Below, piece after piece: positions 1 through 60,279 of a DNA stretch of 64,000 nucleotides (positions are counted from its first letter, which is position 1; the number at the start of each line of letters is the position of its first letter). Origin of the DNA: Patescibacteria group bacterium (GTDB lineage Bacteria > Patescibacteriota > Patescibacteriia > Patescibacteriales > UBA12465); assembly GCA_041649315.1 (NCBI GenBank), contig JBAZNJ010000005.1, forward strand, positions 709-64,708, written 5' to 3'. A program made the translations under genes and the position numbers. Below the pieces are notes generated by a model, which worked only from the letters and a program-made list of their open reading frames with translations, was not told the DNA's origin and did not search any database.

Positions 1-470
1 AACCACGGAGAGTTAATTCTTTTCGCTTACCGGGCTATCACCGTCTCTGGCCGAGCTTTCCAGCTCGTTCAACTAAGAAAAAACTTTTTTGACTCCGCCC
101 TGTTAATCTGGCAACAGGCGTTCGGTCTTGCAACACCGGAAAAACATATGGCTCCAGCGCCTTCTGGCACCGACTCGGCGAACCGAGCCAATGCCGCAGT
201 TATTGCGGTTTAGACTTCTCCCCTTTCGCTCGCCACTACTTAGGGAATAATTATTATTTTCTTTTCCTCCAGCTACTAAGATGTTTCAGTTCGCCGGGTG
301 TTCTAGCCCACCTAAAAGGTCGGGCTTCCTCGATCTTCAATCGAGGGGGTTTCCCCATTCGGAGATCCGCGGGTCAAAGGTTGCTTGCCACCTTACCGCG
401 GCTTATCGCAGGCTGCTACGTCCTTCTTCGTCTTCTTATGTCTAGGCATCCACCGTATACTCTTAACGAG
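1..470 (-). rRNA. rrl: 23S rRNA, 5' ~470 nt (gene runs off the left edge of the window)
   Basis: The reverse complement contains conserved 23S domain I strings: GTTAAGAGTATACGGTGGATGCCTAG (~442-467), GGCGAACTGAAACATCTTAGTAGCTGGAGGAAAAGAAA (~258-295) and AGTAGTGGCGAGCGAAAGGGGA (219-240). The 5' end is placed by analogy to the E. coli terminus, +/-10 nt. Confidence 0.93.
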
Positions 471-608
471 ATTTTCCCACGCTTTTATTTTTAAATAAAA
501 TAAAAAACGTGTCGTATTCCGGACTACAGCCGAGAATAAATTCTCGATCCGAAATACCCTTTCTTATATTTTTACTCTGTGTTTATTGATGTCTTTACTC
601 TAACATGA

Positions 609-3059: not shown

Positions 3060-3098
3060 AAATTAAATTTAATTACTAAAAACAAAGACGCCCGGTTT

Positions 3099-3707
3099 TC
3101 AGGCGCTTTTATTTTCCGACTCGGTCGGAATATCTTTCTCGACTGAAATACCTTTCTCGGTCGGAATATCTTTTGCTTCTTCATCGGCCAGCACTTGGGC
3201 TAAACTATCTCCAGCTGCGGCTTCGGCTGCTGCTTGCCGGTCCGCCTCTTTCTTCTTTGCCGCTTCAATTTCTTCTTTATTATCACGAACTTGGATTTCC
3301 GGCTTATCATTATATAAGGCGCCCAGGACGCCGTTGATAAACTTCCCGGAAGCATCGCCACCGAAACTTTTTGCGACTTCAATCGCTTCATTAATCGCTA
3401 CCCGGGGCGGAATCGGGGTATGTAATAATTCATAAATACCGAGCCGCAAAATATTGCGGTCAACGGTCGTAATTTGATCTAAGGGCCATTCGGTCGCATA
3501 CTTAACGATATACTGATCAATTTCGGCCAAATGCTCACCAACGCCGGCCACAAGATCTTTTACAAAACCGCCGTCATCAAAACTCGGCGCGAAATTAGCA
3601 AAATTATCCGCGATAATCCGATCTATCTCGCCGCTCTTGCGGCCGTTAAAATCCCAGGCGAATAGAGTTTGTAAAGCAAGAGTGCGCGCTAAATGACGAT
3701 TAGACAT
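3099..3707 (-). CDS. nusB: Transcription antitermination factor NusB with an acidic C-terminal extension
   Basis: The N-terminal ~140 aa match NusB ([13 protein letters not shown]..., [19 protein letters not shown]). About 60 aa of E/A/K-rich tail follow, with an internal KDIPTE repeat. Confidence 0.85.
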
Positions 3708-3710
3708 AAA

Positions 3711-3908
3711 TTATTTCTTCTTAGCCGCTTTAATTTTCACCGGACGGATTTCTTTTCCCTTATAAGATCCGCAAGACGGACAAGCTTTATGCGGTTCAAG
3801 CGCCTGGCCGCATTTCGGACACTTATTTAGGGTTTTCTTTTTTAGAGCTAAATGAGCCCGGCCCTGGCGGCTGGAGCTATGGGTCTTTCTTTTTTTAGGG
3901 TTAGCCAT
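3711..3908 (-). CDS. rpmF: 50S ribosomal protein L32
   Basis: 65 aa. MANPKKRKTHSSSRQGRAH plus a CPKCG...CPSCG zinc ribbon, typical of L32. Confidence 0.9.
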   Translation of the reverse strand: MANPKKRKTHSSSRQGRAHLALKKKTLNKCPKCGQALEPHKACPSCGSYKGKEIRPVKIKAAKKK

Positions 3909-3941
3909 ATTTATTAATTTAATTATTAATTATCTGTCTTC

Positions 3942-3969
3942 AGTATATCCCAAAATTTATATTAGTCAA
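3942..3969 (-). promoter_or_regulatory. Promoter of the rpmF-nusB-rnc-pilT cluster
   Basis: Minus strand reads TTGACT (3969-3964), a 16-nt spacer, then TATACT (3947-3942), ~35 nt upstream of the rpmF ATG. Confidence 0.55.
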
Positions 3970-3988
3970 TCGGGGTTAATCCGAGGGC

Positions 3989-5815
3989 CTAATTCTTCGG
4001 CTTCGGCCCGACGATTTCCTCAAAAGCTTCTTTCTCTATCGTTTCTTTTTCTAATAGAACCGCGACAATCTTTTCCAATTCCGCCTTATTCTTGCTAATA
4101 ATCTCCGCCGCCTTAGCTTCTCCCTGGCGGATAAAGCCGGAAATTTCTTCATCAATCCTCTCGGCAATCTTTTCGCTATAATCGCGCTGTTCATGGATTT
4201 CCCGACCCAAAAAAATCATTTCTTCTTTTTCGCCGTAAGTGCGCGGGCCAAGATTATCGCTCATGCCGAAGTCCGTCACTAAACTTCGCGCCAAAGCCGT
4301 CGCCCGCCGCAAATCCGAAGTCGCGCCAGTTGTTACTTCCCCAAAAATCGTCTTTTCTACGAGATGGCCGGCTAAAAGAACCGCGATTTCGGAAATAAAT
4401 TCGGATTTAGAATGCATGTGGCGATCTTCGGAGGGAACTTTTAGAGTATAGCCGCCAGCCGAACCGCGAGCAATGATTGAAACTTTATGAACCGGATCGG
4501 TCCCCGGCAAAAAATGAGCGACCAAGGCATGGCCGGCTTCATGATAGGCGGTAATCTTTTTCTCTTTATCAGTAATCACCCGGCTCTTCCGTTCCGGTCC
4601 GATCATAACTTTTTCAATCGCCTCAAATAAATCTTCATTCAAAATTTCTTTCCGATTAGCCCGAGCCGCCAAGATTGCGGCCTCATTCAAGATATTGGCC
4701 AAATCCGCGCCGGAAAATCCGGCGGTCCGTTCTGCAATTTTTTTAAGCTCAACGGTTTTAGCCAAAGGTTTTTTATAAGCATGGACATTTAAAATTTCTT
4801 CCCGATCTTTTAGGTCAGGCAAGTCAATCGTCACCCGCCGATCAAAACGTCCCGGCCGAAGCAGAGCGGGGTCTAAAACATCCGGACGATTAGTCGCGGC
4901 GATAACAATAATATTCTGCGTCGGTTCAAAGCCGTCCATTTCAACCAAAATTTGATTTAAAGTCTGTTCCCGCTCGTCATGACTGCCGCCTAAACCGGCG
5001 CCACGCCGTCGACCAACCGCGTCAATTTCATCGATAAAGACAATACAGGGCGCGCTTTTCTTTGCTTTCTCAAATAAAGACCGGACGCGCGAAGCCCCGA
5101 CTCCGACAAACATTTCTACGAATTCCGAACCGGACATATGAAAAAACGGCACCTGCGCTTCTCCGGCCACAGAACGAGCGAGCAAAGTTTTCCCAGTACC
5201 GGGCGCGCCTAAAAGCAGGACACCGCGCGGAATCTTTGCGCCAAGCTCATGAAATTTTTTCGGGAAACGAAGAAACTCCACAATTTCTTTTAGCTCCTCT
5301 TTCGCCTCTTTTACCCCGGCAACATCTTTAAAAGTCGTTCGTTTTTTTTCATCCGGCTTAAAATCTTTAGCCGTGGACTGGCCGAAGCTCATCGCCCGAG
5401 AATTCGCGCCTTGGAGCCCACGCATCAAGAAAAAAATAAAAAATCCGATAATCAAAAACGGCACCGCGAAAGGAATAATATTAACCAGCCAATAATTCCA
5501 ACCGCCTTCTTCCTTAACCGAAATCTTAATTCCGGTCATTTTTTCCGGCGCTACTTGGAAATTGCTTAAAAGCGTTGATAAAGATTCTCCTGATTCTTTC
5601 TTAACTTTTTCCTGGCCGCCGTCTTTTAAAGAAACTGATAATTCATTGCCGCTAATAATAATTTCTTCAACCTCAGCGGCTTCAATCCGAGCGATCAAAG
5701 TTTCTATACCGACCGTTTCGCTTTTTGGCGATTGGTTCGCAAAAGCGCTAAAAACAAGGGCGATTACAAAGAAAATAATCAGAAAAAAAGAAAAATTCCT
5801 AATAAGTTTTTTCAT
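3989..5815 (-). CDS. ftsH: ATP-dependent zinc metalloprotease FtsH
   Basis: Walker A GAPGTGKT, Walker [12 protein letters not shown] region, and the HEAGHA zinc motif. Start is set at the ATG at 5815 (MKKLIRNF...) because a TTGCCA-17-TATAAT promoter lies inside the longer ORF-track extension. Confidence 0.95.
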
Positions 5816-5840
5816 GTATTTAAGCTTAATTTGTATCTTT

Positions 5841-5869
5841 ATTATAAGTAAAAAAGCTGGTTTTGGCAA
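5841..5869 (-). promoter_or_regulatory. ftsH promoter
   Basis: Minus strand reads TTGCCA (5869-5864), a 17-nt spacer, then TATAAT (5846-5841). Confidence 0.6.
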
Positions 5870-5937
5870 CCAAAAACGATTATAAAAACATCCTATGATT
5901 TATAATATCCCCTCTTTCAATCTTTTCGCCTGCCGGC

Positions 5938-5971
5938 CAAAAAAAACAAAAACATCCGGCTTAAGGATGTT
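5938..5971 (-). terminator. Intrinsic terminator after rpsA
   Basis: Minus strand reads ACATCC-TTAAGCC-GGATGT followed by TTTTTGTTTTTTTT. Confidence 0.7.
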
Positions 5972-6001
5972 CTTGCTATTATCATTTTAAATTTTTGAAT
6001 T

Positions 6002-7234
6002 TTATTCTTTCTGCCCTTCGCCCGCTTCTTTCCCCTCTTCTTCTTCTTCTTTTTCTTTATCTTTTTTGGTTTTAGCGGTCTTTTCCGTTTTTTCAGCTTT
6101 CGGCTTTCCGGCTGACGCGCCCTCGGCCGCTAATTTCAGGCCTAAGCGATGCTCACTCGGATTAATGCTAACGATTTCAAAATTCTTGATTTCATCGGGC
6201 TGGAACAAGGAAGTAATTTTTTCTTTCTCGCCAATCGCCAGCTGGCTAACATGCGCAAGCCCATGGATTTCTTCATCAAGTTTCACAAATAAACCAAAAG
6301 GATTAACTTTCAAAATCGTACCCGGTACAACCTGGCCAATCTGATATTTCGCGCTCGCTTCTAGCCACGGATCTTTTAATAATTTCTTAGCGCTTAAAAA
6401 TACTTTAGCGCCATCAATAGAAATAATTTCCGCTTTAATTTTATCGCCAATCTTATACATCTCGTTCGGCGAATCAATTCTTTGCCAAGCCAACTCGGAA
6501 ATATGAATCAAGCCCTCAATATTATCGCCAAAAGAAACGAAAACGCCAAAATTAGTAATCGCGGTAATTTTCCCGTCAACAGTTAGGCCGATCTGATATT
6601 TATCCAAGGCCGGCTTTTGTTTTCGGTTCCAAACGTCTTTTTCACTAAAAATTATCTTATTATCTTCTTCGTTTAAAGTTATAACCGTAACTTCAAATTC
6701 CGAACCGACAAAAGATTTTAATTTTTCCAAGATCTTGCTCTTATCTCCGCCGGAAATGCGCGGATAATTATCCGGCGCCAATTGTGAAACCGGCAAAAAG
6801 CCATCAATCTGGCAATAACGGCTCAGTAATCCGCCGCGATTGGCGTCAACGATTTTAACCTTAATCGTGGTCTTATCCTTTAACGCCTGACGCAATTCTT
6901 TCCAAGCCTTTTCTTGGCCGACTAAACGGAAAGATAATTCTAATTCTCCGTTTTCATTTTCAGTATCAATCACCGCCGCCTCGATTTCATCCCCCGGCTT
7001 TAATTCGGAAAACTCCTTAACTTCATTATAAAGCTCCGGCCCCCGGACGATACCCATCAGAACGCCATCAATATCAAGTTTTACCTCGGCTTTAGAGGCC
7101 GCAACCACGGTTCCTTTGATAATATCGCCGACTTGCGGAATTCTAATTTTATCTTTTTCTAATAAGGTCTCAAATTCATCCATCGCCTCGGGCGCTGGAG
7201 ATTTTTTCTCTTCTTTATCTTTTTCGTCTTTCAT
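6002..7234 (-). CDS. rpsA: 30S ribosomal protein S1 (four S1 domains, K/E-rich termini)
   Basis: 410 aa with repeated S1/OB motifs (GDIIKGTV..., FGVFVSFGDNIEGLIHISEL, FGLFVKLDEEIHGLAHVSQL). The N- and C-termini are low-complexity and charged. Confidence 0.9.
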   Translation of the reverse strand: MKDEKDKEEKKSPAPEAMDEFETLLEKDKIRIPQVGDIIKGTVVAASKAEVKLDIDGVLMGIVRGPELYNEVKEFSELKPGDEIEAAVIDTENENGELELSFRLVGQEKAWKELRQALKDKTTIKVKIVDANRGGLLSRYCQIDGFLPVSQLAPDNYPRISGGDKSKILEKLKSFVGSEFEVTVITLNEEDNKIIFSEKDVWNRKQKPALDKYQIGLTVDGKITAITNFGVFVSFGDNIEGLIHISELAWQRIDSPNEMYKIGDKIKAEIISIDGAKVFLSAKKLLKDPWLEASAKYQIGQVVPGTILKVNPFGLFVKLDEEIHGLAHVSQLAIGEKEKITSLFQPDEIKNFEIVSINPSEHRLGLKLAAEGASAGKPKAEKTEKTAKTKKDKEKEEEEEGKEAGEGQKE

Positions 7235-7291
7235 ATTTTTAGGGTTTTTTGCCTAACAAAAAAATACCCTTAACCCGATTTAATCATCGAG

Positions 7292-7355
7292 CCCCGCGGC
7301 CACCTCCGACCGGCTTTTATTAGCCGCCTTAAAATCCGCAGGGTTTTTAGAGGTG
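7292..7355 (-). promoter_or_regulatory. Structured rpsA 5' leader (predicted H-type pseudoknot)
   Basis: In the minus-sense RNA, CACCUC (7355-7350) pairs with GAGGUG (7306-7301). CCCUGCGG (7343-7336) pairs with CCGCGGGG (7299-7292), 8 bp including one G.U. The two helices interleave and enclose a GGCU/AGCC hairpin. Confidence 0.4.
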
Positions 7356-7373
7356 ATATATTATTGTTTTTCT

Positions 7374-7402
7374 AGTATAGTCCGCTTTTTTACTTTTGTC
7401 AA
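7374..7402 (-). promoter_or_regulatory. rpsA promoter
   Basis: Minus strand reads TTGACA (7402-7397), a 17-nt spacer, then TATACT (7379-7374). Confidence 0.65.
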
Positions 7403-7431
7403 CCAAATATCATCAACAGTTATTTTGAAAA

Positions 7432-8565
7432 TCAAGCTACTTTCTTTAGTGGCGCTTGCGATTCCTTCTGGCGCTTACCTTTGTGTTCTAACTTTTGCGG
7501 TAATAATCCGGGAATGAGTTTAACAAAAACATAAGTCATCTTCGGGTCTTTTTTACTAGCGGCTATACTCTTTTTTGTTAAGTCGTAAAAATAATCTCCC
7601 GGATCATCAATATCGGCAATTATTTTTTCCATCTTTCCGTTGGGGCCCGGGACATATTTAACTAACTGCTCTTGATCCTGATCTCGACCACGGAAATGGC
7701 CGATCTTAAAAGTTCCTTTACCCCAATCACCAATCTTCACTTTATGCTCTCCATATTCATTAGCTAATTCCAAAACTCTTTCCGGCGCGACAAGCTGGCC
7801 TTTAGAATCAAGCAGGGGCTCCCGCCAATTCGTGGAGCTAACGCGTTTATAAGCCTCTTTCATCAACGCCAACTCTTCTGCTCTTTGTTCGTGTTTATCC
7901 AGGGCCTTATCCTTCTTGCCTTCTTTGGCGCGCGCTTGATTTATCTTCTTAAAAAGATTAACGATGTCGCTCGGCGGAGTCGAGGACGGAATTCTTGAAT
8001 CATTTTCTTTATCCTCCTCATTTTCATAATCTTCGCCGGCTAATAGATTTTCAAATTCTGACTGCCGCCGCTGATCTAATTCGTTCTCCTTAGATTCTAA
8101 ATAAGCAATAAACTTTTTCGCGTCCTTAGGGCTTAAGAATTTTTCAGCGTCGCGCCGCCACTCGGCCGTGATTTCTTCCTCTTCCTGTTCAGCGCGTTCC
8201 CCGTCCGATAGCGTTTTTTTATCTAAATCGGTTTCTCCGCGCCCTAAACTAGCATCAACCTGCTCATAAATTTTATCTTCATCAGAAATATCCTCGCCAT
8301 AAATCTGCTCATTTTCATAAACATCATCTTGGGTCCGAAAAGTGTCCGGTTCTTTTAAGCGCGCCTCATCTTCCCGCCATTCTTCTTGGTCGTTAAGGCC
8401 GTCAAATTTTTCTTTAATTTTCAAATTCCGGCCTTTCTCCATAATATCTTCAGATTTTTCATTGGTATTTTTCCCATATTCTTCTGCTTCTTTCCTTTCT
8501 AGGCGTTTATCCTCTTGAGGCGTTTTTATTGACTCGGTAAATGATTTGAAAAAATTAAATCCCAT
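7432..8565 (-). CDS. Hypothetical acidic protein (377 aa)
   Basis: Long ORF. The N-terminal ~230 aa are E/D/K-rich and low-complexity. The C-terminal ~140 aa look globular (…IGDWGKGTFKIGHFRG…). No family recognised. Confidence 0.6.
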   Translation of the reverse strand: MGFNFFKSFTESIKTPQEDKRLERKEAEEYGKNTNEKSEDIMEKGRNLKIKEKFDGLNDQEEWREDEARLKEPDTFRTQDDVYENEQIYGEDISDEDKIYEQVDASLGRGETDLDKKTLSDGERAEQEEEEITAEWRRDAEKFLSPKDAKKFIAYLESKENELDQRRQSEFENLLAGEDYENEEDKENDSRIPSSTPPSDIVNLFKKINQARAKEGKKDKALDKHEQRAEELALMKEAYKRVSSTNWREPLLDSKGQLVAPERVLELANEYGEHKVKIGDWGKGTFKIGHFRGRDQDQEQLVKYVPGPNGKMEKIIADIDDPGDYFYDLTKKSIAASKKDPKMTYVFVKLIPGLLPQKLEHKGKRQKESQAPLKKVA

Positions 8566-14234: not shown

Positions 14235-14301
14235 AATCTATGCTCTTTTGTTTTTATTAATATTCCTGCCACGCCAACATAGCGCCGGCCGGCGAATCTT
14301 G

Positions 14302-14684
14302 TGGAGATGATGGGAGTTGAACCCATGTCCAACCGGTTCCACCGAATATATTTACAAGGATAGGCCGATTTATTTTTTTAACCTCAACCATCAAAACCGG
14401 GCGAAAAGCGATTGAGGCGATCTTCCTATTTGTTTCAATATTCCCCGGAAAGAGCAAAGAATATCTATCCTCATGTTTATGACACCGGCCGTCGCTTATG
14501 AAGACTCAGCGCGACCGATGGCTATGGCTTATTTATTAGGCCATAACTGGAGCGTAACTTGGGCAAGCCCAAGTGAACGCTTTTGCCGTTTTGGCATTTG
14601 TGTTTTTTTAACCGGTTTAACGCGGCGGTTAAGCGCGCCTTGAATATCCGACAGAAGGTCCGGCTGTCGATGCCTGGCATCCCC
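14302..14684 (-). ncRNA. ssrA: tmRNA (SsrA), one-piece
   Basis: The 5' end reads GGGGATGCCAGGCATCGACAGCCGG. The 3' end has a tRNA-like T arm ATGGG-TTCAACT-CCCAT plus acceptor CATCTCCA. An internal tag ORF (14595..14539) ends in TAA TAA. The gene lies directly downstream of smpB. Confidence 0.85.
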
Positions 14685-14756: not shown

Positions 14757-15215
14757 TTATTTTCTCTTTGTCAAAGACCTCAGTCGCCGGTCAACTTCCC
14801 GTCTCTTTATTGTTTCCCGCTTATCATATTTCTTCTTGCCTCGGGCGACCGCGAATTTAAGCTTGAGAAAACTATGATTAGTATATATTTTGAGCGGGAT
14901 TAGTGTCAAGCCCTCGGCCTGTTTTTTGCCTAATAAATGAGCGATTTCATTCTTCTTCAAAAGCAGTTTCCGCTCCCGGCGCTGATTATAATCCGGCATA
15001 ATTCCAGCGTTCTTATAGGGAGAAATCTGGCAATTTATCAAATATAGCTCGGCTCGTCCATTCTTGGTTCGGGGAGAAATAAAGCTCCCCTTTAGGCTTA
15101 GCTGTCCAGCTTTCGCCGCCTTAACTTCATGGCCTAACAAAACCAACCCGGCTTCATGTTCGTCCAGGATTTCATAGTCAAAATTAGCTTTCTTGTTTAT
15201 CGCCAGGTTGGGCAT
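14757..15215 (-). CDS. smpB: SsrA-binding protein SmpB
   Basis: 152 aa. Contains NKKANFDYEILDEHEAGLVLLGHEVKA and a basic C-terminal tail typical of SmpB. Confidence 0.93.
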   Translation of the reverse strand: MPNLAINKKANFDYEILDEHEAGLVLLGHEVKAAKAGQLSLKGSFISPRTKNGRAELYLINCQISPYKNAGIMPDYNQRRERKLLLKKNEIAHLLGKKQAEGLTLIPLKIYTNHSFLKLKFAVARGKKKYDKRETIKRREVDRRLRSLTKRK

Positions 15216-32383: not shown

Positions 32384-32412
32384 ATTATAACTTAATACCT
32401 TTAAGTATTCAA
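32384..32412 (-). promoter_or_regulatory. Orphan sigma70 promoter overlapping the Elp3-like stop codon
   Basis: Minus strand reads TTGAAT (32412-32407), a 17-nt spacer, then TATAAT (32389-32384). Confidence 0.55.
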
Positions 32413-34052
32413 ATATTTTTTGTCATATAACTATTTTCTGACTTATACCCCATTTTCCGATAATACCCCCTCACCCCGACACCAGAAATCACGGCGATTT
32501 TTAATCTCCGTTTAAATTCTTTCTTGGCAACTCTTTCCGCTTCGGCCATTAACTTTCGACCCAGCCCGCTATGCTGGACTTTTTTCGCGCCGCCAACAGA
32601 AACCAACTCGCCGTAAACATGGAGCTCACGAATAATCGCCGGCGCGATCGGGCTATTTTCGTCTAAACGCAAACGGCAAAATCCGTATAAAATCGCGCCG
32701 CCTAAACTATCAGCGCTAATAAAATACTCTTGGCCGCCGGCCGCCGGATATTCAATGATATTTATCTTATGCCGGCCAATTAGGCCGTCTTTAACTTCCC
32801 GGCAACGAATACATTCACATTTAACTCCCCGATCTTTCATAATCTGCCGCAAATTAGTAATCTTATTTCCGGCCACGATAGATTCGCCCGGGATATCACG
32901 GATCAGGCGGATAATCCGGACATAACGCGGCACTACCGCCTTGCATTTAACGATTAATTCTTGTAAAACTTTGTCCGAATACGGCTTATACTTTCCTTGC
33001 CGGTACCAGCGATATAATAAACTGCCGCGCGTTACGACGGTCGGATAAAACTTAATCTGATCCGGCTGGAAGCGCTCGTCAATAAATAATTTTTCAAATA
33101 ATTTAAAATCGCGCGCCGGCGTCGCTCCCGGTAAGGCCGGCATCAAATGATAAGTAATCTTAAAGCCATATTGTTTTAATAAGCGCGTAGCATCGGCAAT
33201 GGCCGCGACATCATGCCCGCGTTTATTTAATTTTAAAATCGCGTCGTCAACCGCCTGAACACCGATTTCCACGCGCGTACAACCGAGCGCCCGCATCTCG
33301 CGCAATTCAAAGTCATTAATATAATCCGGCCGCGTTTCTAAAGTGAGCCCGATAATTTTATAAACCGCATTTTCATTTTTTTTCTGCTCAACCACTAAGA
33401 ATTTTTTTAATGTTTCTAATTTCAAATTTTTGGCATAAGGCGTCTTAAATCCGCTTTTAAATTTTTCCGCGCCGATTGGACGTTCAAACCCGATTTTTCT
33501 TATTTTTTCATAATCATTCGCCGCTCGAAAACAATTTAGGATATACCAATATTTATATTTAGGCGGTAAATAGCTCCAAGTACCGCCGATAACGATTATT
33601 TCAATCTTGGTCGGTTCATGCCCATTACTCTCTAAAGCGCGCAGGCGCGCCGCAACCTGCTGATAAGGGTCATAATCACAACGAATCGCTCGCATTACCG
33701 CCGGTTCGTTTGATAAATAACTGGTCGGCACATTTTTTTCATGCGGACAATAAGCGCACTGGCCCGGACAGGGATAGGGCTTGGTCAAAACCGCGACCGG
33801 CGCGATGCCGGATAAAGTCCGGATCGACCGTTTCCGCAATAAACCCTCAAACAATTTAAACGATTCTAATTTATTTAACGCTAACAAAGCCCGATATTCT
33901 TTTAAAATTTCCGAGTTTAAAATCTGGGTCAGGCCGTATTCTTTACATAAAAAACGCTTTATTACTTCTAAATCGGCGCGATTTTTTATTTTCACCAGAT
34001 ATTCAAGGATTAAGCGGATAATCGCTTCTTTTTTATTGCTACGCTCGGTCAT
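32409..34052 (-). CDS. Elp3-like radical SAM + GNAT acetyltransferase (tRNA U34 modification family)
   Basis: 547 aa. Radical-SAM cysteine cluster PCPGQCAYCPHE in the N-terminal half, and a C-terminal GNAT motif VQHSGLGRKLMAEAERVA. The domain order matches Elp3. Confidence 0.85.
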   Translation of the reverse strand: MTERSNKKEAIIRLILEYLVKIKNRADLEVIKRFLCKEYGLTQILNSEILKEYRALLALNKLESFKLFEGLLRKRSIRTLSGIAPVAVLTKPYPCPGQCAYCPHEKNVPTSYLSNEPAVMRAIRCDYDPYQQVAARLRALESNGHEPTKIEIIVIGGTWSYLPPKYKYWYILNCFRAANDYEKIRKIGFERPIGAEKFKSGFKTPYAKNLKLETLKKFLVVEQKKNENAVYKIIGLTLETRPDYINDFELREMRALGCTRVEIGVQAVDDAILKLNKRGHDVAAIADATRLLKQYGFKITYHLMPALPGATPARDFKLFEKLFIDERFQPDQIKFYPTVVTRGSLLYRWYRQGKYKPYSDKVLQELIVKCKAVVPRYVRIIRLIRDIPGESIVAGNKITNLRQIMKDRGVKCECIRCREVKDGLIGRHKINIIEYPAAGGQEYFISADSLGGAILYGFCRLRLDENSPIAPAIIRELHVYGELVSVGGAKKVQHSGLGRKLMAEAERVAKKEFKRRLKIAVISGVGVRGYYRKMGYKSENSYMTKNI

Positions 34053-49872: not shown

Positions 49873-51276
49873 TTAATAAACAGTGTTAAATAATTGTCGG
49901 ATAGAGCCAACCTCTTGTTTTATTTTTTCGTTTCCTCCCTCCTTTACTTCTTGGCAAATTTTATTATAAGAGTGCATAGCGGTGGTATGATCGCGACCGC
50001 CGAGCTCCGCGCCGATTGTTGGGTAAGAAGTACTTAATTCTTCACGGATTAAAAAAATAGCGATTTGTCGAGGCCAAACCAATTCTTTTTTTCGGCTTGG
50101 GCCGACCAGGTCTTTATAGTTTAGATTATAAAATTTTGCCGTTGCTTCAATAATTTCCTTTGGTGTTAAGGATTTCAACTGGATATTAGAAATATAATCA
50201 TTTAAAATTTCTCGGACGCTTTTAACAGAAGGGCTTGTGCCGCGGAACTGGTGAGAGGCGACGACTTTATTCAGGGCGCCCTCCAGCTCCCGGATATTAT
50301 TTTGTACATGTTCGGCAATGTAGGCTAAAATATCCTTTTCTAAAGGAAAATTACGTTCTAAAGATTTTTTTTCTAAAATTGCGATTTTAGTTTCTAGGTC
50401 CGGTTTGCCAACATCGGCGACCATTCCGGACTCAAATCGGGAAATTAAACGTTTTTCCAGGGCCGGGATTGATTTTGGCGGTCGGTCGGAAGTTAAAACG
50501 ATTTGCTTGTCGTTTTGCTGGAGTTCGTTGAAAGTATGGAAAAACTCTTCCTGAGTGCCGTCTTTGCCGCCCATAAATTGGACATCGTCAACTAGTAAGA
50601 GGTCGACATTACGATATAGATTTTTAAATTCTTTGGCGCGGCCGGTTTTAACGGATTGAATATAGTTGTTGGTAAATTTTTCACTAGTGACATAAAGGAT
50701 TTTATTTGTTCTTTTCGCGACGGCGTGACCGATTGCTTGGAGTAAATGGGTTTTGCCCAAACCGACGCCACCATAAATAAAAAGAGGATTATAAGATTTT
50801 CCTGGATTTTCCACGACAGCTAAACAAGCGGCGTGAGCCAGCTCATTGCCGCGGCCGACAATAAAATTATCAAAAAGATAACGCGGGTTAAGTCCGTAAC
50901 GGCTGGTTTCTTGAGTTCCTTCTGATTTTTCTATAACATTTTCTGACGGCGTTAATTTTTCTTTGTTTTGAGAGAGCTCTTTATCTTCATTTCCGTCGGT
51001 AGACGAATTGGTGTGGCCGTTGTTTTTTTTCAATTCGATTTTATAAATTATTTCTTTTATTTCTTGTTTGGAAACATTTTCTAGGGCGCTTAAAATATTT
51101 TTATGATATTTTTCTTCTAACCATTTTTTAACAAAGGCGTTTGGGACGCAGACAATCGCCCGCCCGCATTCGAAAGAGGAAATAAAAGTGTCTTTAAACC
51201 AAGTAATGAAGTTAGCGCGGGATAAATTAATTTCAATTTCTCCCAAAACCGCTTGCCAAAGTTGTTCGTTGGTCAT
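49873..51276 (-). CDS. dnaA: Chromosomal replication initiator DnaA
   Basis: AAA+ motifs GGVGLGKTHLL and LLVDDVQF, plus the C-terminal DNA-binding signature …GGRDHTTAMHSY. Start is set at the ATG at 51276 (MTNEQLWQ…); the ORF-track start is a TTG 13 codons upstream. Confidence 0.95.
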   Translation of the reverse strand: MTNEQLWQAVLGEIEINLSRANFITWFKDTFISSFECGRAIVCVPNAFVKKWLEEKYHKNILSALENVSKQEIKEIIYKIELKKNNGHTNSSTDGNEDKELSQNKEKLTPSENVIEKSEGTQETSRYGLNPRYLFDNFIVGRGNELAHAACLAVVENPGKSYNPLFIYGGVGLGKTHLLQAIGHAVAKRTNKILYVTSEKFTNNYIQSVKTGRAKEFKNLYRNVDLLLVDDVQFMGGKDGTQEEFFHTFNELQQNDKQIVLTSDRPPKSIPALEKRLISRFESGMVADVGKPDLETKIAILEKKSLERNFPLEKDILAYIAEHVQNNIRELEGALNKVVASHQFRGTSPSVKSVREILNDYISNIQLKSLTPKEIIEATAKFYNLNYKDLVGPSRKKELVWPRQIAIFLIREELSTSYPTIGAELGGRDHTTAMHSYNKICQEVKEGGNEKIKQEVGSIRQLFNTVY

Positions 51277-51340
51277 AAAAAAAGAGTTGGATGATTGGTC
51301 CAAATTAATTATCAACTGTTAAATCAAATTCTATTAGTCC

Positions 51341-55775: not shown

Positions 55776-55827
55776 AAAAAGACCCGACATTCGTCAGATC
55801 TTTTTAATTAGTGGGTCCGACAGGATT
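55776..55827. repeat. Direct repeat copy 1: orphan tRNA-Val 3' fragment (16 nt) + terminator
   Basis: 52/52 nt identical to 55989-56040 (AAAAAGACCCGACATTCGTCAGATCTTTTTAATTAGTGGGTCCGACAGGATT). It lacks the rest of the tRNA. Confidence 0.95.
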
Positions 55828-55988
55828 TCCGCCTCGCGGCGCTTAGCCGCGCCGCTCGTTGTCGCGGCGGACCCGATAAACGCTCCCCTTGGTCGCGTTT
55901 ATCGTCGCTCATTCTCTCGTCCTCTCTCCGTTCGGACTCGAGTTTCGCTCGCCGCCTGTTCTCATCCTGTCGTTGCGAGCCGTTAATT
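55828..55988. other. 161-bp GC-rich (~62% by hand count) structured insert between the direct repeats
   Basis: Perfect hairpins at 55836-55855 (GCGGCGC/GCGCCGC) and 55874-55904 (CGATAAACGC-N11-GCGTTTATCG). A 9-bp inverted repeat, 55818-55826 versus 55964-55972, pairs the tRNA fragment with the far end of the insert. Confidence 0.8.
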
Positions 55989-56024
55989 AAAAAGACCCGA
56001 CATTCGTCAGATCTTTTTAATTAG

Positions 56025-56040
<16 letters not shown>
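55989..56040. repeat. Direct repeat copy 2 (3' end of intact tRNA-Val + terminator)
   Basis: Identical to 55776-55827. Minus-sense AGAUCUGAC-GAAU-GUCGGGUCU plus U5 forms the tRNA terminator. Confidence 0.95.
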
Positions 56041-56098
<58 letters not shown>

Positions 56099-56125
56099 AT
56101 AATTTTTAATCTTTAATTTTTAGGG

Positions 56126-56199
56126 TGGGCATAGATGGACTTGAACCATCGACCCCCGCTTTATAAGAGCGGTGCTCTAACCACCTGAGCTATATGCCC
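56126..56199 (-). tRNA. tRNA-Ile (TAT anticodon)
   Basis: Acceptor GGGCATA/TATGCCC, D arm GCTC-AGGTGGTTA-GAGC, anticodon arm CCGCT-CTTATAA-AGCGG, T arm GATGG-TTCAAGT-CCATC. The body resembles bacterial tRNA-Ile. Confidence 0.9.
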
Positions 56200-56345
56200 A
56201 ATTATAATAATTAGCTTAAAAGATTGCAAGAAATTCGGATACTAAATTATTATATCGGTTGTCGGGGAGCCGAAAAACCACACTCAATAGAGCATTTAAT
56301 ATAATCCTGATAAAGCTGGCACGACAAGGCAATTATTTTATACCA

Positions 56346-57497
56346 TTATAAATTTGATTTATCAAGCTTTCGGCGCAAAGTGGCGATTATTTCCAGGGCG
56401 GCCGTATCCAAATCCTGGGCAAGGTCGACGGTAGCAATTTTAATCGTGCCGCGCGGGTCATATTCTTTTATAAACTCGAGGGCGCTGATATTTTTAAGAG
56501 AATAAACGCTTAGCTTTGTTTTCCCTGGCGCAAGAGAGCGGAAAATAGCAACGAGTTTTGCGCTCGGGACATTAGTGATCAATTCACTGACGATGTCGTT
56601 AAGATCTTCATCAATTTCTTTGTTGCCGCCGGAATCGTCCGGAGATAATTTTACCCAAAGTAGTTCGTTATTTTTTTCCGCCTGCAAGCCGCTCAAAACT
56701 TTCCCCCATAATTTTAAAGAAGTTAAATTGCGGGAACGGTAAAGATGGCTGACTATCTCCTCGCGTCGGGCGCCGAGAGCAATCAATTGGGAAGTCGTTA
56801 ATAGTGTGCGCGGCGTAAGATTCGCGGTCTTAAAATTTCTTGTTTCCTGAATTATTCCGGCTAAAAGGCAAGTAGCAATATCTTCGTCAATCATTTCTTC
56901 CTTATAATTTTTTAAAAGATAAAATAAAATTTCTGCCGTGGCTACCGCGTTTAAATCAACAAAGTTTATTTGTCCGAAATCTTCATTGGCCGAATCATGA
57001 TCGATGTTTATAATCGGGGTTTTATAGAAGAATTCAATATTGTCATCATAAATTTTATTTAAAGATTCTAAATCGTTGGCGCCTAAAGTTATTACTAAAT
57101 CATATTTGAATTCGCCGGCGCGGGCGCTCACGTCTTCCGGCTTAAACCAACCGTCGCTCGGAGAAATTATAAAATTAAGGCGATTGCCGTCAACCGTGTA
57201 TTTTATCTGGCTTACCTTTGCTTCACTGATATCGACGGAAACGATAAAGCGGCGGAGATTGCTTAGATTATTTTGGATATCGGAATAAGCTGGTAAAAAA
57301 GATAGAGGTTGCCGCGTTTCCGCTGCCTTGAAGCCGGCGATCTCCACATTTTTTTTAAGTTTTTTTAAAAATAAAAAAAGCGCCAGCGCTGAGGAGACGG
57401 CGTCACCGCTCCAATCAGCCGGAAAGACGATAAGAATATTTTTGGCCTTTTCCCATTGGCGGAAAATTTGTCGTTCTAGATCAAGCATTTTTTTCAA
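56346..57497 (-). CDS. DHH-family phosphoesterase (NrnA-like), divergent motifs
   Basis: 383 aa. DHH-type layout with …SGDAVSSALAL…, …NIDHDSAN… (DHD instead of DHH) and a DHHA1-like C-terminal domain. Assignment is moderate. Confidence 0.65.
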   Translation of the reverse strand: MKKMLDLERQIFRQWEKAKNILIVFPADWSGDAVSSALALFLFLKKLKKNVEIAGFKAAETRQPLSFLPAYSDIQNNLSNLRRFIVSVDISEAKVSQIKYTVDGNRLNFIISPSDGWFKPEDVSARAGEFKYDLVITLGANDLESLNKIYDDNIEFFYKTPIINIDHDSANEDFGQINFVDLNAVATAEILFYLLKNYKEEMIDEDIATCLLAGIIQETRNFKTANLTPRTLLTTSQLIALGARREEIVSHLYRSRNLTSLKLWGKVLSGLQAEKNNELLWVKLSPDDSGGNKEIDEDLNDIVSELITNVPSAKLVAIFRSLAPGKTKLSVYSLKNISALEFIKEYDPRGTIKIATVDLAQDLDTAALEIIATLRRKLDKSNL

Positions 57498-57609: not shown

Positions 57610-60279
57610 ATGAAAAAAGAATTAGACAAGGTCTATAGTCCTCAGGAAAATGAGGATGAAATTTATAAAAAATGGGAAAAATCGGGTTATTTCAACCCCG
57701 ATAATTTAAATTTGTCAAGCGAAGCGCCAAGCTATACGATTGTTTTGCCGCCGCCGAACATTACGGCGAAATTACACATCGGTCATAGCGCCATGCTGGC
57801 GATTGAGGACCTATTAATTCGTTACCATCGGCTTAAAGGGGAAAGAACTCTTTGGGTGCCGGGGACTGATCATGCCGCGATTGCAACGCAAAACGCGGTT
57901 GAGAAAAAGCTTTTAAAAGAAACCGGGAAAACCCGGCATGATTTTGGCCGGGAAAAATTTTTAAATGAAGTTTGGAAATTTGTTGAAGAGACCCAGGCGC
58001 TTATTTTGCGGCAAACCAAGAAAATGGGCGCGTCGTTGGATTGGGATCGCTTGGCTTTTACGCTTGACGCTCCCCGGCAAGAAGCGGTTAAGAAAATGTT
58101 TATTGATATGTATGAAGCCGGGGCGATTTATCGCGGCGAGCGGATCGTTAATTGGTGTCCGCGCTGCCAATCAACCTTAGCCGATGATGAAGTTGAATAT
58201 CAGGAACAGCCGGCTAAATTATATACTTTTAAATACGATAAGAATTTTCCGATTACTATTTCAACTACTCGGCCGGAAACGAAACTCGGCGATACGGCCG
58301 TGGCGGTTAATCAGAAAGACGAGAGATATAAACAATATATCGGGAAAGAATACCAGGTAAGTTTTTGCGGGCAAGCGTTAAAGATTAAAATTATTTCTGA
58401 TCGAAACGTGGAGCCGGAATTTGGGACAGGTGCTTTAGGCGTTACGCCGGCGCATTCAATAATTGATTGGCAGATGGCGGAGAAAAACGATTTGGAAATC
58501 GTTAAAGTAATTGATGAACAAGGAAAGATTAGAGATGGGTTTGGAAAATATTCCGGATTGAGCGTTATGGCCGCGCGGGAAAAAATTGTGGATGAGTTAC
58601 GAAAAAGTGGCCTTTTAGAAAAAGAAGAAGATATCGTTAATAATTTATCGCTTTGCTATCGTTGTGAATCCCCGATCGAACCCCTGCCCTCTAAACAATG
58701 GTTTGTAGCGGTTGATAAGAAGTTAGAATGTTTGAATAATAAATCTTTAAAAGAAAAGGCGATTGAAGCGGCGCAAAAAACCGGAGAGACGTCGGCCGAG
58801 ATAGAATTTATTCCTAACCGTTTTACTAAGCGGTATTTAGATTGGATGGAAAATTTGCATGATTGGTGTGTTTCGCGGCAAATTTGGTTCGGGCATCAGA
58901 TTCCGGCCTGGTATCGGATGGTTGGCGAGAAGGAAGAAATTTTTGTCGGAGAAAATACGCCAGACGGAGAAGGATGGACGCAAGACACTGATACTTTAGA
59001 CACTTGGTTTTCTTCCGGCATGTGGACCTTTTCGACTTTGGGCTGGCCGGACAATTTTAAAGACGGAAAGAAAAGCGGAGATTTAACCAGGTTCCATCCG
59101 ACCCAGGTTTTAGAAACTGGTTACGAAATTTTAACCCTTTGGGTCTCCCGGATGATTATGATGTCATTTTTTGCGATAGGAGAGATTCCTTTTCAGAAAG
59201 TTTATCTGCATGGAACGATTTTAGATAAACACGGAAAGAAAATGTCAAAATCTAAAGGTAATGGCGTTGATCCTTTAGAAATTATTGAAAGTTATGGCGC
59301 TGATGCCCTACGCCTATCCTTGCTTATGGGAGCGACACCGGGCAATGATTCGCGCTTCAGCGAAGAAAAAGTTGAGGCCAAGCGAAATTTTATTAATAAA
59401 CTATGGAATATTTCCCGTTTTATTTTAAGCAGTACTGATGAAAAATTTTATGTGACGGCAAATAATAAATTGCCAAAGCTTAAAACCGCAAGCGATAAAT
59501 GGATTGTTTGGATGATGAATAATTTAATTGAACAGGTGTCGGTAAATTTGGAAAATTTTGATTTTTCTTTAGCCGCGGAAACTCTAACCAGTTTCACCTG
59601 GGACGCTTTGGCGGATTGGTATTTGGAAATTGCTAAAGTAGAAAAAGATAAAGAAGAAATTTTAATTTATTTGTTAAAGAATTTATTAATTCTTTGGCAT
59701 CCTTTTATTCCTTTTGTGACTGAGAAAATTTGGTCCGGTTTTGGTGATGACGCGGGCAAGTTATTAATAATTGAACCTTGGCCGGAAAGTAGTAAAGATA
59801 AAAAAATAGAAAATAAAGAGGTTTTAGAATTTAGTAAAATTATTAAGATTATTCAGAAAATAAGAGAATTGCGGGCTGAAAATAAAATTGAGCCAAAAAA
59901 TAAGATTAAAGCACTTATTTACGCGCATGATAATTTAGCCATAGTCAAAAGCCAAGCGCTTTTAATCCAGAGTTTAAGGACTAATTTAAGCGAATTAGAA
60001 ATCAAAGAAAGCGGCGATCAAATTTCTGAAGCAATCGGCGGCGTAGTTGAAGGGATGGAAATATTCTTATTTGGCGGGGTCGATAAAGAAAAAGAACGGG
60101 CGCGTTTAACTAAAGAAAAAGCTAATTTAGAAAAAGTTATCGCTCTCCAGGAACAGAAATTAGCTAATTCTGATTTTGTGTCGCGTGCTCCGGCCACAAT
60201 CGTTGAAGCAGAAAAGAATAAGCTAGCTAATTATAAAGATGAGCTAGAAAAAATAGTTAAGATAAATAACGCCTTATGA
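57610..60279 (+). CDS. valS: Valyl-tRNA synthetase
   Basis: 889 aa. HIGH (LHIGHS) and KMSKS motifs, a CP1 editing domain, and a C-terminal coiled coil. Confidence 0.96.
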   Translation: MKKELDKVYSPQENEDEIYKKWEKSGYFNPDNLNLSSEAPSYTIVLPPPNITAKLHIGHSAMLAIEDLLIRYHRLKGERTLWVPGTDHAAIATQNAVEKKLLKETGKTRHDFGREKFLNEVWKFVEETQALILRQTKKMGASLDWDRLAFTLDAPRQEAVKKMFIDMYEAGAIYRGERIVNWCPRCQSTLADDEVEYQEQPAKLYTFKYDKNFPITISTTRPETKLGDTAVAVNQKDERYKQYIGKEYQVSFCGQALKIKIISDRNVEPEFGTGALGVTPAHSIIDWQMAEKNDLEIVKVIDEQGKIRDGFGKYSGLSVMAAREKIVDELRKSGLLEKEEDIVNNLSLCYRCESPIEPLPSKQWFVAVDKKLECLNNKSLKEKAIEAAQKTGETSAEIEFIPNRFTKRYLDWMENLHDWCVSRQIWFGHQIPAWYRMVGEKEEIFVGENTPDGEGWTQDTDTLDTWFSSGMWTFSTLGWPDNFKDGKKSGDLTRFHPTQVLETGYEILTLWVSRMIMMSFFAIGEIPFQKVYLHGTILDKHGKKMSKSKGNGVDPLEIIESYGADALRLSLLMGATPGNDSRFSEEKVEAKRNFINKLWNISRFILSSTDEKFYVTANNKLPKLKTASDKWIVWMMNNLIEQVSVNLENFDFSLAAETLTSFTWDALADWYLEIAKVEKDKEEILIYLLKNLLILWHPFIPFVTEKIWSGFGDDAGKLLIIEPWPESSKDKKIENKEVLEFSKIIKIIQKIRELRAENKIEPKNKIKALIYAHDNLAIVKSQALLIQSLRTNLSELEIKESGDQISEAIGGVVEGMEIFLFGGVDKEKERARLTKEKANLEKVIALQEQKLANSDFVSRAPATIVEAEKNKLANYKDELEKIVKINNAL

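Follow-up and report, generated by a model that had tools for sequence, protein, structure and literature searches.

A 74-nt tRNA gene with the anticodon UAU lies on the minus strand at positions 56126-56199 of the window, by which we mean the whole 64,000-nucleotide stretch of Patescibacteria DNA analysed here. It is a real, functional-looking gene, vertically inherited and selectively maintained, and it occupies a constant chromosomal position in a clade of Patescibacteria related to Falkowbacteria, where AUA is a routinely used isoleucine codon. On balance, we consider it probable that this Ile-type tRNA, paired with tRNA-Val(GAC), reads most AUA codons, and probably all of them, and has taken over from tRNA-Ile2(CAU) and the lysidine enzyme TilS.

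One of the classic weaknesses of the genetic code is the discrimination between AUA (isoleucine) and AUG (methionine). Bacteria are regarded as using lysidine almost universally for this purpose, TilS is treated as an essential, bacteria-specific target, and the natural exceptions to lysidine known so far comprise a handful of genera. The initial annotation of this locus described genomic tRNA-Ile(UAU) as confined to a minority of lineages, with Mycoplasma mobile as the studied case. This agrees with the literature, where the bacterial gene is reported in only 17-19 genomes (PMC3575796, PMC4013482, PMC8450103); the description 'rare' still appears in a 2026 preprint (10.64898/2026.02.03.703510).

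The tRNA-Ile(UAU) gene and its surroundings

The features of the locus are as follows:

56126-56199, minus strand: tRNA-Ile(UAU) gene ('tRNA-Ile3'), 74 nt, CCA not encoded (Rfam, ARAGORN and cloverleaf fold)
56025-56098, minus strand: tRNA-Val(GAC) gene (Rfam, 74.1 bits, and ARAGORN)
56201-56229, minus strand: TTGCAA-17 nt-TATAAT, a promoter-like site immediately before tRNA-Ile (10 of 12 positions matched in a consensus scan; a consensus match only)
56327-56298, minus strand: second promoter candidate (consensus scan)
55989-56018, minus strand: hairpin AAAAAGAUCUGAC-GAAU-GUCGGGUCUUUUU directly after tRNA-Val (read from sequence)
55776-55805, minus strand: identical second copy of the hairpin with a better T-tail (terminator-like by scan)

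The UAU-anticodon tRNA proposed in the initial annotation was recovered at exactly the same coordinates by three approaches. Rfam model RF00005 matched the minus strand with 73.1 bits (gathering score 29, E 4.5e-14), and the full model was covered. ARAGORN, a check which the initial annotation had suggested, called tRNA-Ile with anticodon tat at 56123-56200 on the minus strand, an isotype name derived from the anticodon only. The minimum free energy fold of the minus strand was a cloverleaf. The sequence quoted previously was the reverse complement of the plus strand, and the gene is a minus-strand gene.

The tRNA reads GGGCAUAUAGCUCAGGUGGUUAGAGCACCGCUCUUAUAAAGCGGGGGUCGAUGGUUCAAGUCCAUCUAUGCCCA. 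It comprises a 7-bp acceptor stem (GGGCAUA/UAUGCCC), a 4-bp D stem, a 5-bp anticodon stem (CCGCU/AGCGG), a 5-nt variable loop and a 5-bp T stem. The 7-nt anticodon loop consists of C32 U33 U34 A35 U36 A37 A38, which gives the anticodon UAU; the loop CTTATAA with anticodon TAT had thus been read correctly, as CUUAUAA on the minus strand. The discriminator is A73, and since the next genomic letters are CCC, the CCA end is not encoded.

The tRNA-Val(GAC) gene has the same orientation and follows after a further 27 nt. The same tandem was present in 14 of 16 related GTDB loci and in 8 of 9 loci selected by protein homology, the ninth ending before the tRNA-Val position. The two genes are probably co-transcribed as a two-gene unit. 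The promoter-like match at 56201-56229 is doubtful, because its −10 hexamer ends 1 nt ahead of G1 of tRNA-Ile and the site therefore abuts the tRNA, too near for transcription to start in the usual way. In relatives, a conserved TTGATA-17-TATAAA element is found 25-45 nt upstream of tRNA-Ile, a form which the window lacks. At the other end of the unit, the hairpin after tRNA-Val is likely the operon terminator, judging from its sequence.

A perfect 52-nt direct repeat was observed at 55776-55827 and 55989-56040. Each copy contains the last 16 nt of tRNA-Val(GAC) and the terminator hairpin. The unique 161-nt segment between the copies (55828-55988) has a GC-content of 62%, compared to 41% for the window, and folds at −66 kcal/mol (z = −4.7). 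The segment matched no Rfam family and did not recur in the window or in related loci, and a 29-nt probe from it found no exact match in IMG/VR. The insertion is missing from the closest relative (L275). Together with the 52-nt target duplication, the segment has the appearance of a recent insertion into the 3' end of tRNA-Val.

A gene for a DHH-family phosphoesterase lies upstream of tRNA-Ile(UAU) on the same strand (56346-57497), and valS (57610-60279) and pheS are divergent from it. Downstream of the tRNA pair, hsp20, a VanW-domain gene, yidC, rnpA, dnaA (49873-51315) and dnaN were found. The sign of the GC skew switches at ~48-50 kb; together with the position of dnaA, this places the tRNA pair ~5 kb from the likely replication origin. 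A scan for DnaA boxes gave a result not above chance.

The GC-content of the window is 37-45% per 4-kb bin and ~41% overall, so the 'AT-rich genome' of the initial annotation was an overstatement for DNA that is only mildly AT-rich. The remaining genes are compact, keep to one strand per replichore and include those for a T4SS-type pilin and an H+-pyrophosphatase; this content looks like that of a small-genome organism of the Patescibacteria/CPR.

Several other RNA features of the window were recorded. The 5' end of a 23S rRNA gene at 1-476 (minus strand) takes 476 nt for 404 model positions, i.e., ~70 extra nt. Neither tRNA-Ile(GAU) nor tRNA-Ala was found upstream of it, and the usual spacer tRNAs are missing on that side. 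The tmRNA gene (14301-14684, minus strand) encodes a predicted tag peptide AKTAKAFTWACPSYAPVMA, which ends in VMA rather than in the common LAA, and it adjoins smpB (14757-15215).

Conservation across the clade

The distribution of the gene was examined by a GTDB scan with a pattern of the 40-nt tRNA core, in which any wobble base was allowed, in one genome per species (185,579 species genomes). The pattern was present in 16 species representatives, all with T34. No C34 or G34 version of the core was found among the 185,579 genomes. The titles of the 16 species name Candidatus Falkowbacteria (including GW2011_GWF2_43_32), 'Patescibacteria group', Saccharibacteria/Saccharimonadales and several 'Gammaproteobacteria' MAGs. 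The gene order of the window was kept in 15 of the 16 loci, with protein identity of 45-80%: divergent valS, followed by DHH, tRNA-Ile(UAU), tRNA-Val(GAC), hsp20, vanW, yidC, rnpA and dnaA.

Because a search with the 40-nt core is biased by the tRNA sequence itself, relatives were also sampled through the neighbouring DHH protein. Relatives were chosen only by this protein (62-92% identity) and their contigs were fetched, which provided nine loci, including OW818634.1 (895,742-bp genome), FLOH01000015.1 (831-kb contig) and a 911-kb ENA contig. tRNA-Ile(UAU) occupied the same slot in all nine. In the closest relative, CAZNIE010000073.1, the gene was identical to that of the window at 74 of 74 positions.

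Across the 25 homologous loci (16 from GTDB and 9 selected by DHH), the anticodon loop with T34 was identical without exception, and C34, the lysidine-type substrate of TilS, was absent from these loci and from the window gene. The core-gene neighbourhood near dnaA was kept in 24 of the 25. Seven distinct tRNA sequences were represented, in which 147 of 147 stem cells were paired, and compensatory double changes affected seven base pairs of the acceptor, anticodon and T stems. No variation was seen in the whole anticodon loop, the D stem (with U12-A23), G29-C41, G1-C72 or C4-G69, the last of which stayed constant while adjacent pairs covaried. This combination of conservation and a fold preserved by compensatory changes indicates a functional tRNA under purifying selection rather than a recent mutant or a pseudogene.

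A recent anticodon mutant confined to this genome (C34>T of tRNA-Ile2 or G34>T of tRNA-Ile1), or a decaying pseudogene, would have a precedent in the one-step origin of a Bacillus subtilis suppressor (PMC3919564). With T34 at every homologous locus, compensatory stem changes and no C34 or G34 core in GTDB, the probability of such an origin is negligible. The initial annotation had also named a recent mutant as a possible outcome; it is excluded by conservation of the gene in at least 17 species-level genomes (the window and 16 from GTDB) and in further assemblies.

The only locus without conserved synteny was L125, positions 3084-7545 (CAYMJM010000015.1, Candidatus Saccharibacteria). Its tRNA-Ile(UAU) has the same 40-nt core and a different acceptor stem, which is shared with IMG/VR tRNAs in loci L002 and L058, and the genes on either side of it encode a tyrosine recombinase and a VirD4/TraG-like coupling protein. 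This context suggests a possible horizontal route into Saccharimonadia.

Such a context might also speak for a phage or mobile-element tRNA, imported for AUA-rich foreign genes, as might the small insertion with its target duplication at the neighbouring tRNA-Val and the presence of tRNA(UAU) genes with an Ile-like D-arm on at least 120 IMG/VR contigs. However, the viral tRNAs share the anticodon and a similar D-arm with the window gene and are at most 59/74 identical to it among those listed; they stand in a viral context without shared neighbours, and none of those loci encodes window-like proteins. The window gene is placed among core genes (valS, pheS, dnaA, yidC, rnpA), in an order that only L125 departs from. 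An imported tRNA is thus very unlikely as a general explanation, and for this clade the core-gene synteny excludes it. Phages themselves seem to carry both solutions to AUA decoding, since 41 IMG/VR contigs encode TilS-like PP-loop proteins in addition to the contigs with tRNA(UAU); none of these 41 TilS-like loci was Patescibacteria-like.

Some database labels were at odds with the gene content of the loci. Six loci, L121, L122, L130, L133, L134 and L135 (CAZZBQ01, CAYSJT01, CAZAAD01, CAZMJW01, CAZTUJ01 and CAZFUP01), are titled 'uncultured Gammaproteobacteria bacterium'. Since the MAGs with Gammaproteobacteria titles have the Patescibacteria gene order of the window with 50-80% protein identity, these titles look wrong. 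One DHH homologue (P0129) was similarly labelled Candidatus Cloacimonetes.

Amino-acid identity and use of the AUA codon

The initial annotation held that the tRNA body resembles bacterial tRNA-Ile. In each of 5,426 E. coli genomes, the best match to the window tRNA was indeed an annotated tRNA-Ile, namely the GAU species of the rrn spacer. However, the comparison is weakly discriminating: identity outside the anticodon was 76% to ileV(GAU) and 69% to ileX(CAU), compared to 68% for elongator metT and 52% for fMet. Body similarity therefore favours isoleucine only modestly.

Individual positions were also compared. The determinants of isoleucine identity in E. coli, reportedly described by Nureki et al. 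in 1994, are said to be A35, U36, A37, A38, A73, C4-G69, U12-A23 and C29-G41. All of these are present in the window tRNA except the last, as the 29-41 pair is G-C and not C-G. Where the window tRNA has C4-G69, E. coli metT has U4-A69. By these sequence features, the tRNA appears to carry an Ile-type identity.

Codon usage was tabulated for 47 ORFs of the window (17,437 codons), with the following frequencies per 1000 codons:

AUA: 14.7
AUU: 49.0
AUC: 21.1
AUG: 14.9

AUA accounts for 256 codons and 17% of isoleucine codons, and at least one AUA is present in each of the 47 ORFs, which bears out the earlier expectation that AUA codons are frequent. The frequency falls into the 'high' class of more than 10 per 1000 defined in PMC12514573. 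Window codons were then mapped onto orthologues in related loci, with subject AUA codons left out. Positions of AUA aligned with isoleucine in 52% of cases and with methionine in 3%. The profiles of AUU and AUC were indistinguishable from that of AUA; AUG differed, with 74% methionine.

These data bear on the possibility that the tRNA is not charged with isoleucine, either because AUA is reassigned or because the tRNA has another identity. The failure of body similarity to separate Ile cleanly from elongator Met would allow for it. On the other side, AUA positions align like those of AUU and AUC, the Ile-type C4-G69 and A73 are invariant, and MetRS requires C34. We regard a non-isoleucine tRNA as improbable in the extreme.

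Decoding of AUA and the lysidine system

The same-spot conservation of an isoleucine-type tRNA(UAU) means that the clade may do without TilS. A TilS N-domain HMM built from the E. coli, Geobacillus and Aquifex proteins gave no match at E ≤ 10 in the window, in the 16 genome loci, in 0.90 Mb of metagenome sequence (80 loci around FtsH relatives with 68-87% identity) or in 10 further loci. As a positive control, the same model recovered E. coli TilS, with an E-value of 1e-120. In Bacillus subtilis and many other bacteria, tilS adjoins hpt and ftsH. Near ftsH in the 80 FtsH-centred loci there was no tilS and one unrelated PP-loop protein only; ftsH is preceded here by an S1-domain gene. No TilS or PP-loop protein of this kind (HMM and PP-loop motif) and no tRNA with a CAU anticodon was detected in the window and related loci, ~1.26 Mb of heavily overlapping regions that represent a small part of a ~0.9-Mb genome. 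IleRS was likewise not found in the window or related loci, where a phmmer search with E. coli IleS matched only ValRS.

TilS and tRNA-Ile2(CAU) might nevertheless be encoded elsewhere in the genome, with tRNA-Ile(UAU) as an auxiliary AUA reader that raises decoding capacity for a frequent codon, a role proposed for the gene in Lactobacillus casei and Cyanothece. TilS occurs in ~98% of bacteria and is described as evolutionarily stable (PMC6063277; prevalence also in PMC12514573), the sampled loci cover the limited share of the genome given above, and tilS together with a TAT tRNA gene is documented in Lactobacillus casei, Cyanothece PCC 7424 and Ferrimonas balearica (PMC3575796). Those bacteria carry the same kind of gene, but there it occurs sporadically, in individual strains or species, whereas the window gene is fixed, syntenic and nearly invariant in a deep clade; the searches in the sampled loci, including those beside ftsH, also count against redundancy. 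A redundant decoder is a real possibility, though one that we tend to doubt.

Where tRNA(UAU) is fixed in M. mobile, hemoplasmas, Bifidobacterium and Neorickettsia, it accompanies loss of tilS (PMC3575796, PMC8450103). Because of this precedent and of the clade-wide fixation of the UAU gene, we infer that tilS has somewhat better than an even chance of being lost in the clade.

The closest studied parallel is tRNA-Ile2(UAU) of M. mobile, likewise a genomic UAU tRNA-Ile in a small genome with frequent AUA codons and a proposed direct reader of AUA (Taniguchi et al. 2013, PMC3575796). The absence of tilS, an unmodified U34, adaptation of IleRS at Arg865 (Trp-to-Arg) and ribosomal rejection of AUG were demonstrated there (PMC3575796). 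The residue of E. coli IleRS that aligns with Arg865 is Trp905. Unlike the M. mobile gene, the window gene has been conserved in an uncultured clade of much greater depth, and its tRNA body resembles E. coli Ile1(GAU) more closely than Ile2(CAU). Bifidobacterium and Neorickettsia resemble the clade in the genus-level fixation of a tRNA-Ile3(UAU), which replaces tRNA-Ile2(CAU) there and probably does so here (PMC8450103, PMC3575796). They lack tilS and have a eukaryote-type IleRS; the comparison with the window clade concerns the tRNA gene, IleRS being outside the sampled loci.

The archaea Nanoarchaeum equitans and Korarchaeum cryptofilum also possess an unusual UAU decoder (PMC8450103, PMC3895270), and N. 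equitans, a reduced, host-dependent organism of uncultured type, parallels the CPR/Patescibacteria. However, the system replaced in these archaea is agmatidine/TiaS and not lysidine/TilS. In the tilS-deletion suppressor of B. subtilis, G34U in tRNA-Ile1 combined U34 with an Ile1-like body and allowed AUA to be read without lysidine (PMC3919564), but this is a laboratory mutant with some misreading of AUG and not a natural conserved gene.

If tRNA-Ile(UAU) is the main AUA decoder of the clade, decoding could proceed in several steps. The tRNA-Ile and tRNA-Val genes would be transcribed together and the transcript processed (rnpA is present in the window). CCA would be added to tRNA-Ile(UAU), and IleRS would charge it with isoleucine. 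U34 would then form a Watson-Crick pair with the A of AUA, and the tRNA-Ile2(CAU)/TilS lysidine system would be replaced, as in M. mobile, Bifidobacterium and Neorickettsia. Candidate means of avoiding AUG are an unmodified U34 with tuning of the ribosome and tRNA body, as in M. mobile, or a modification of U34. Positions 8-65 of the tRNA show near-total invariance, which is compatible, as a matter of speculation, with a finely tuned body.

The window also encodes a homologue of Elp3 at 32409-34052 (minus strand, 547 aa) with radical-SAM, Radical_SAM_C and GNAT domains, which matched Elp3 of D. mccartyi (5L7J) with E 1.5e-115. Homologues numbered 7,815 at E < 1e-10; the best 120 of the 7,815 were 69-92% identical, and many of them are named Elp3 and come from Patescibacteria. 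NCBI names the homologues of the clade, where they are widespread, tRNA U34 modification enzyme. Bacterial Elp3 is described as rare (PMC6367351), yet members of this clade appear to have it as a rule. The enzyme may take the place of MnmE/MnmG in U34 modification and could act on U34 tRNAs, perhaps including tRNA-Ile(UAU), which we note as a lead only.

An Elp3-type modification that restricts U34 to A was considered and rejected: haloarchaeal tRNA-Ile(UAU) with cnm5U34, a modification of an Elp3-like pathway, reads AUA > AUG > AUU (PMC3895270). Hence such a modification alone would not give fidelity. That U34 is handled by Elp3 of the clade (cm5U pathway) rather than left unmodified is the less likely alternative; if true, this would be a mode of decoding so far undescribed for bacteria.

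Our literature search found no paper linking Patescibacteria or CPR with lysidine, TilS or tRNA-Ile(UAU). In genome annotations of the clade, these genes are presumably already labelled tRNA-Ile(TAT). The gene is of a type known from M. mobile, Bifidobacterium and Neorickettsia, now observed in a lineage for which the searched literature makes no mention of it. Should tilS turn out to be present, the finding would amount to a conserved auxiliary tRNA of modest interest. The broader proposal, that a deep clade of Patescibacteria with many species (relatives of Falkowbacteria, and possibly some Saccharimonadia) has permanently dropped TilS and lysidine and reads frequent AUA codons with tRNA-Ile(UAU), has close to an even prospect, perhaps slightly less. 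If true, the clade would far exceed in size every other natural group of bacteria that lives without lysidine.

A clade-wide, fixed tRNA-Ile(UAU) would considerably enlarge the set of lysidine-independent bacteria. It would be relevant for annotation and for the completeness and essential-gene markers applied to CPR genomes, and the clade would supply many natural variants of tRNA, IleRS and ribosome for studying how U34 avoids AUG.
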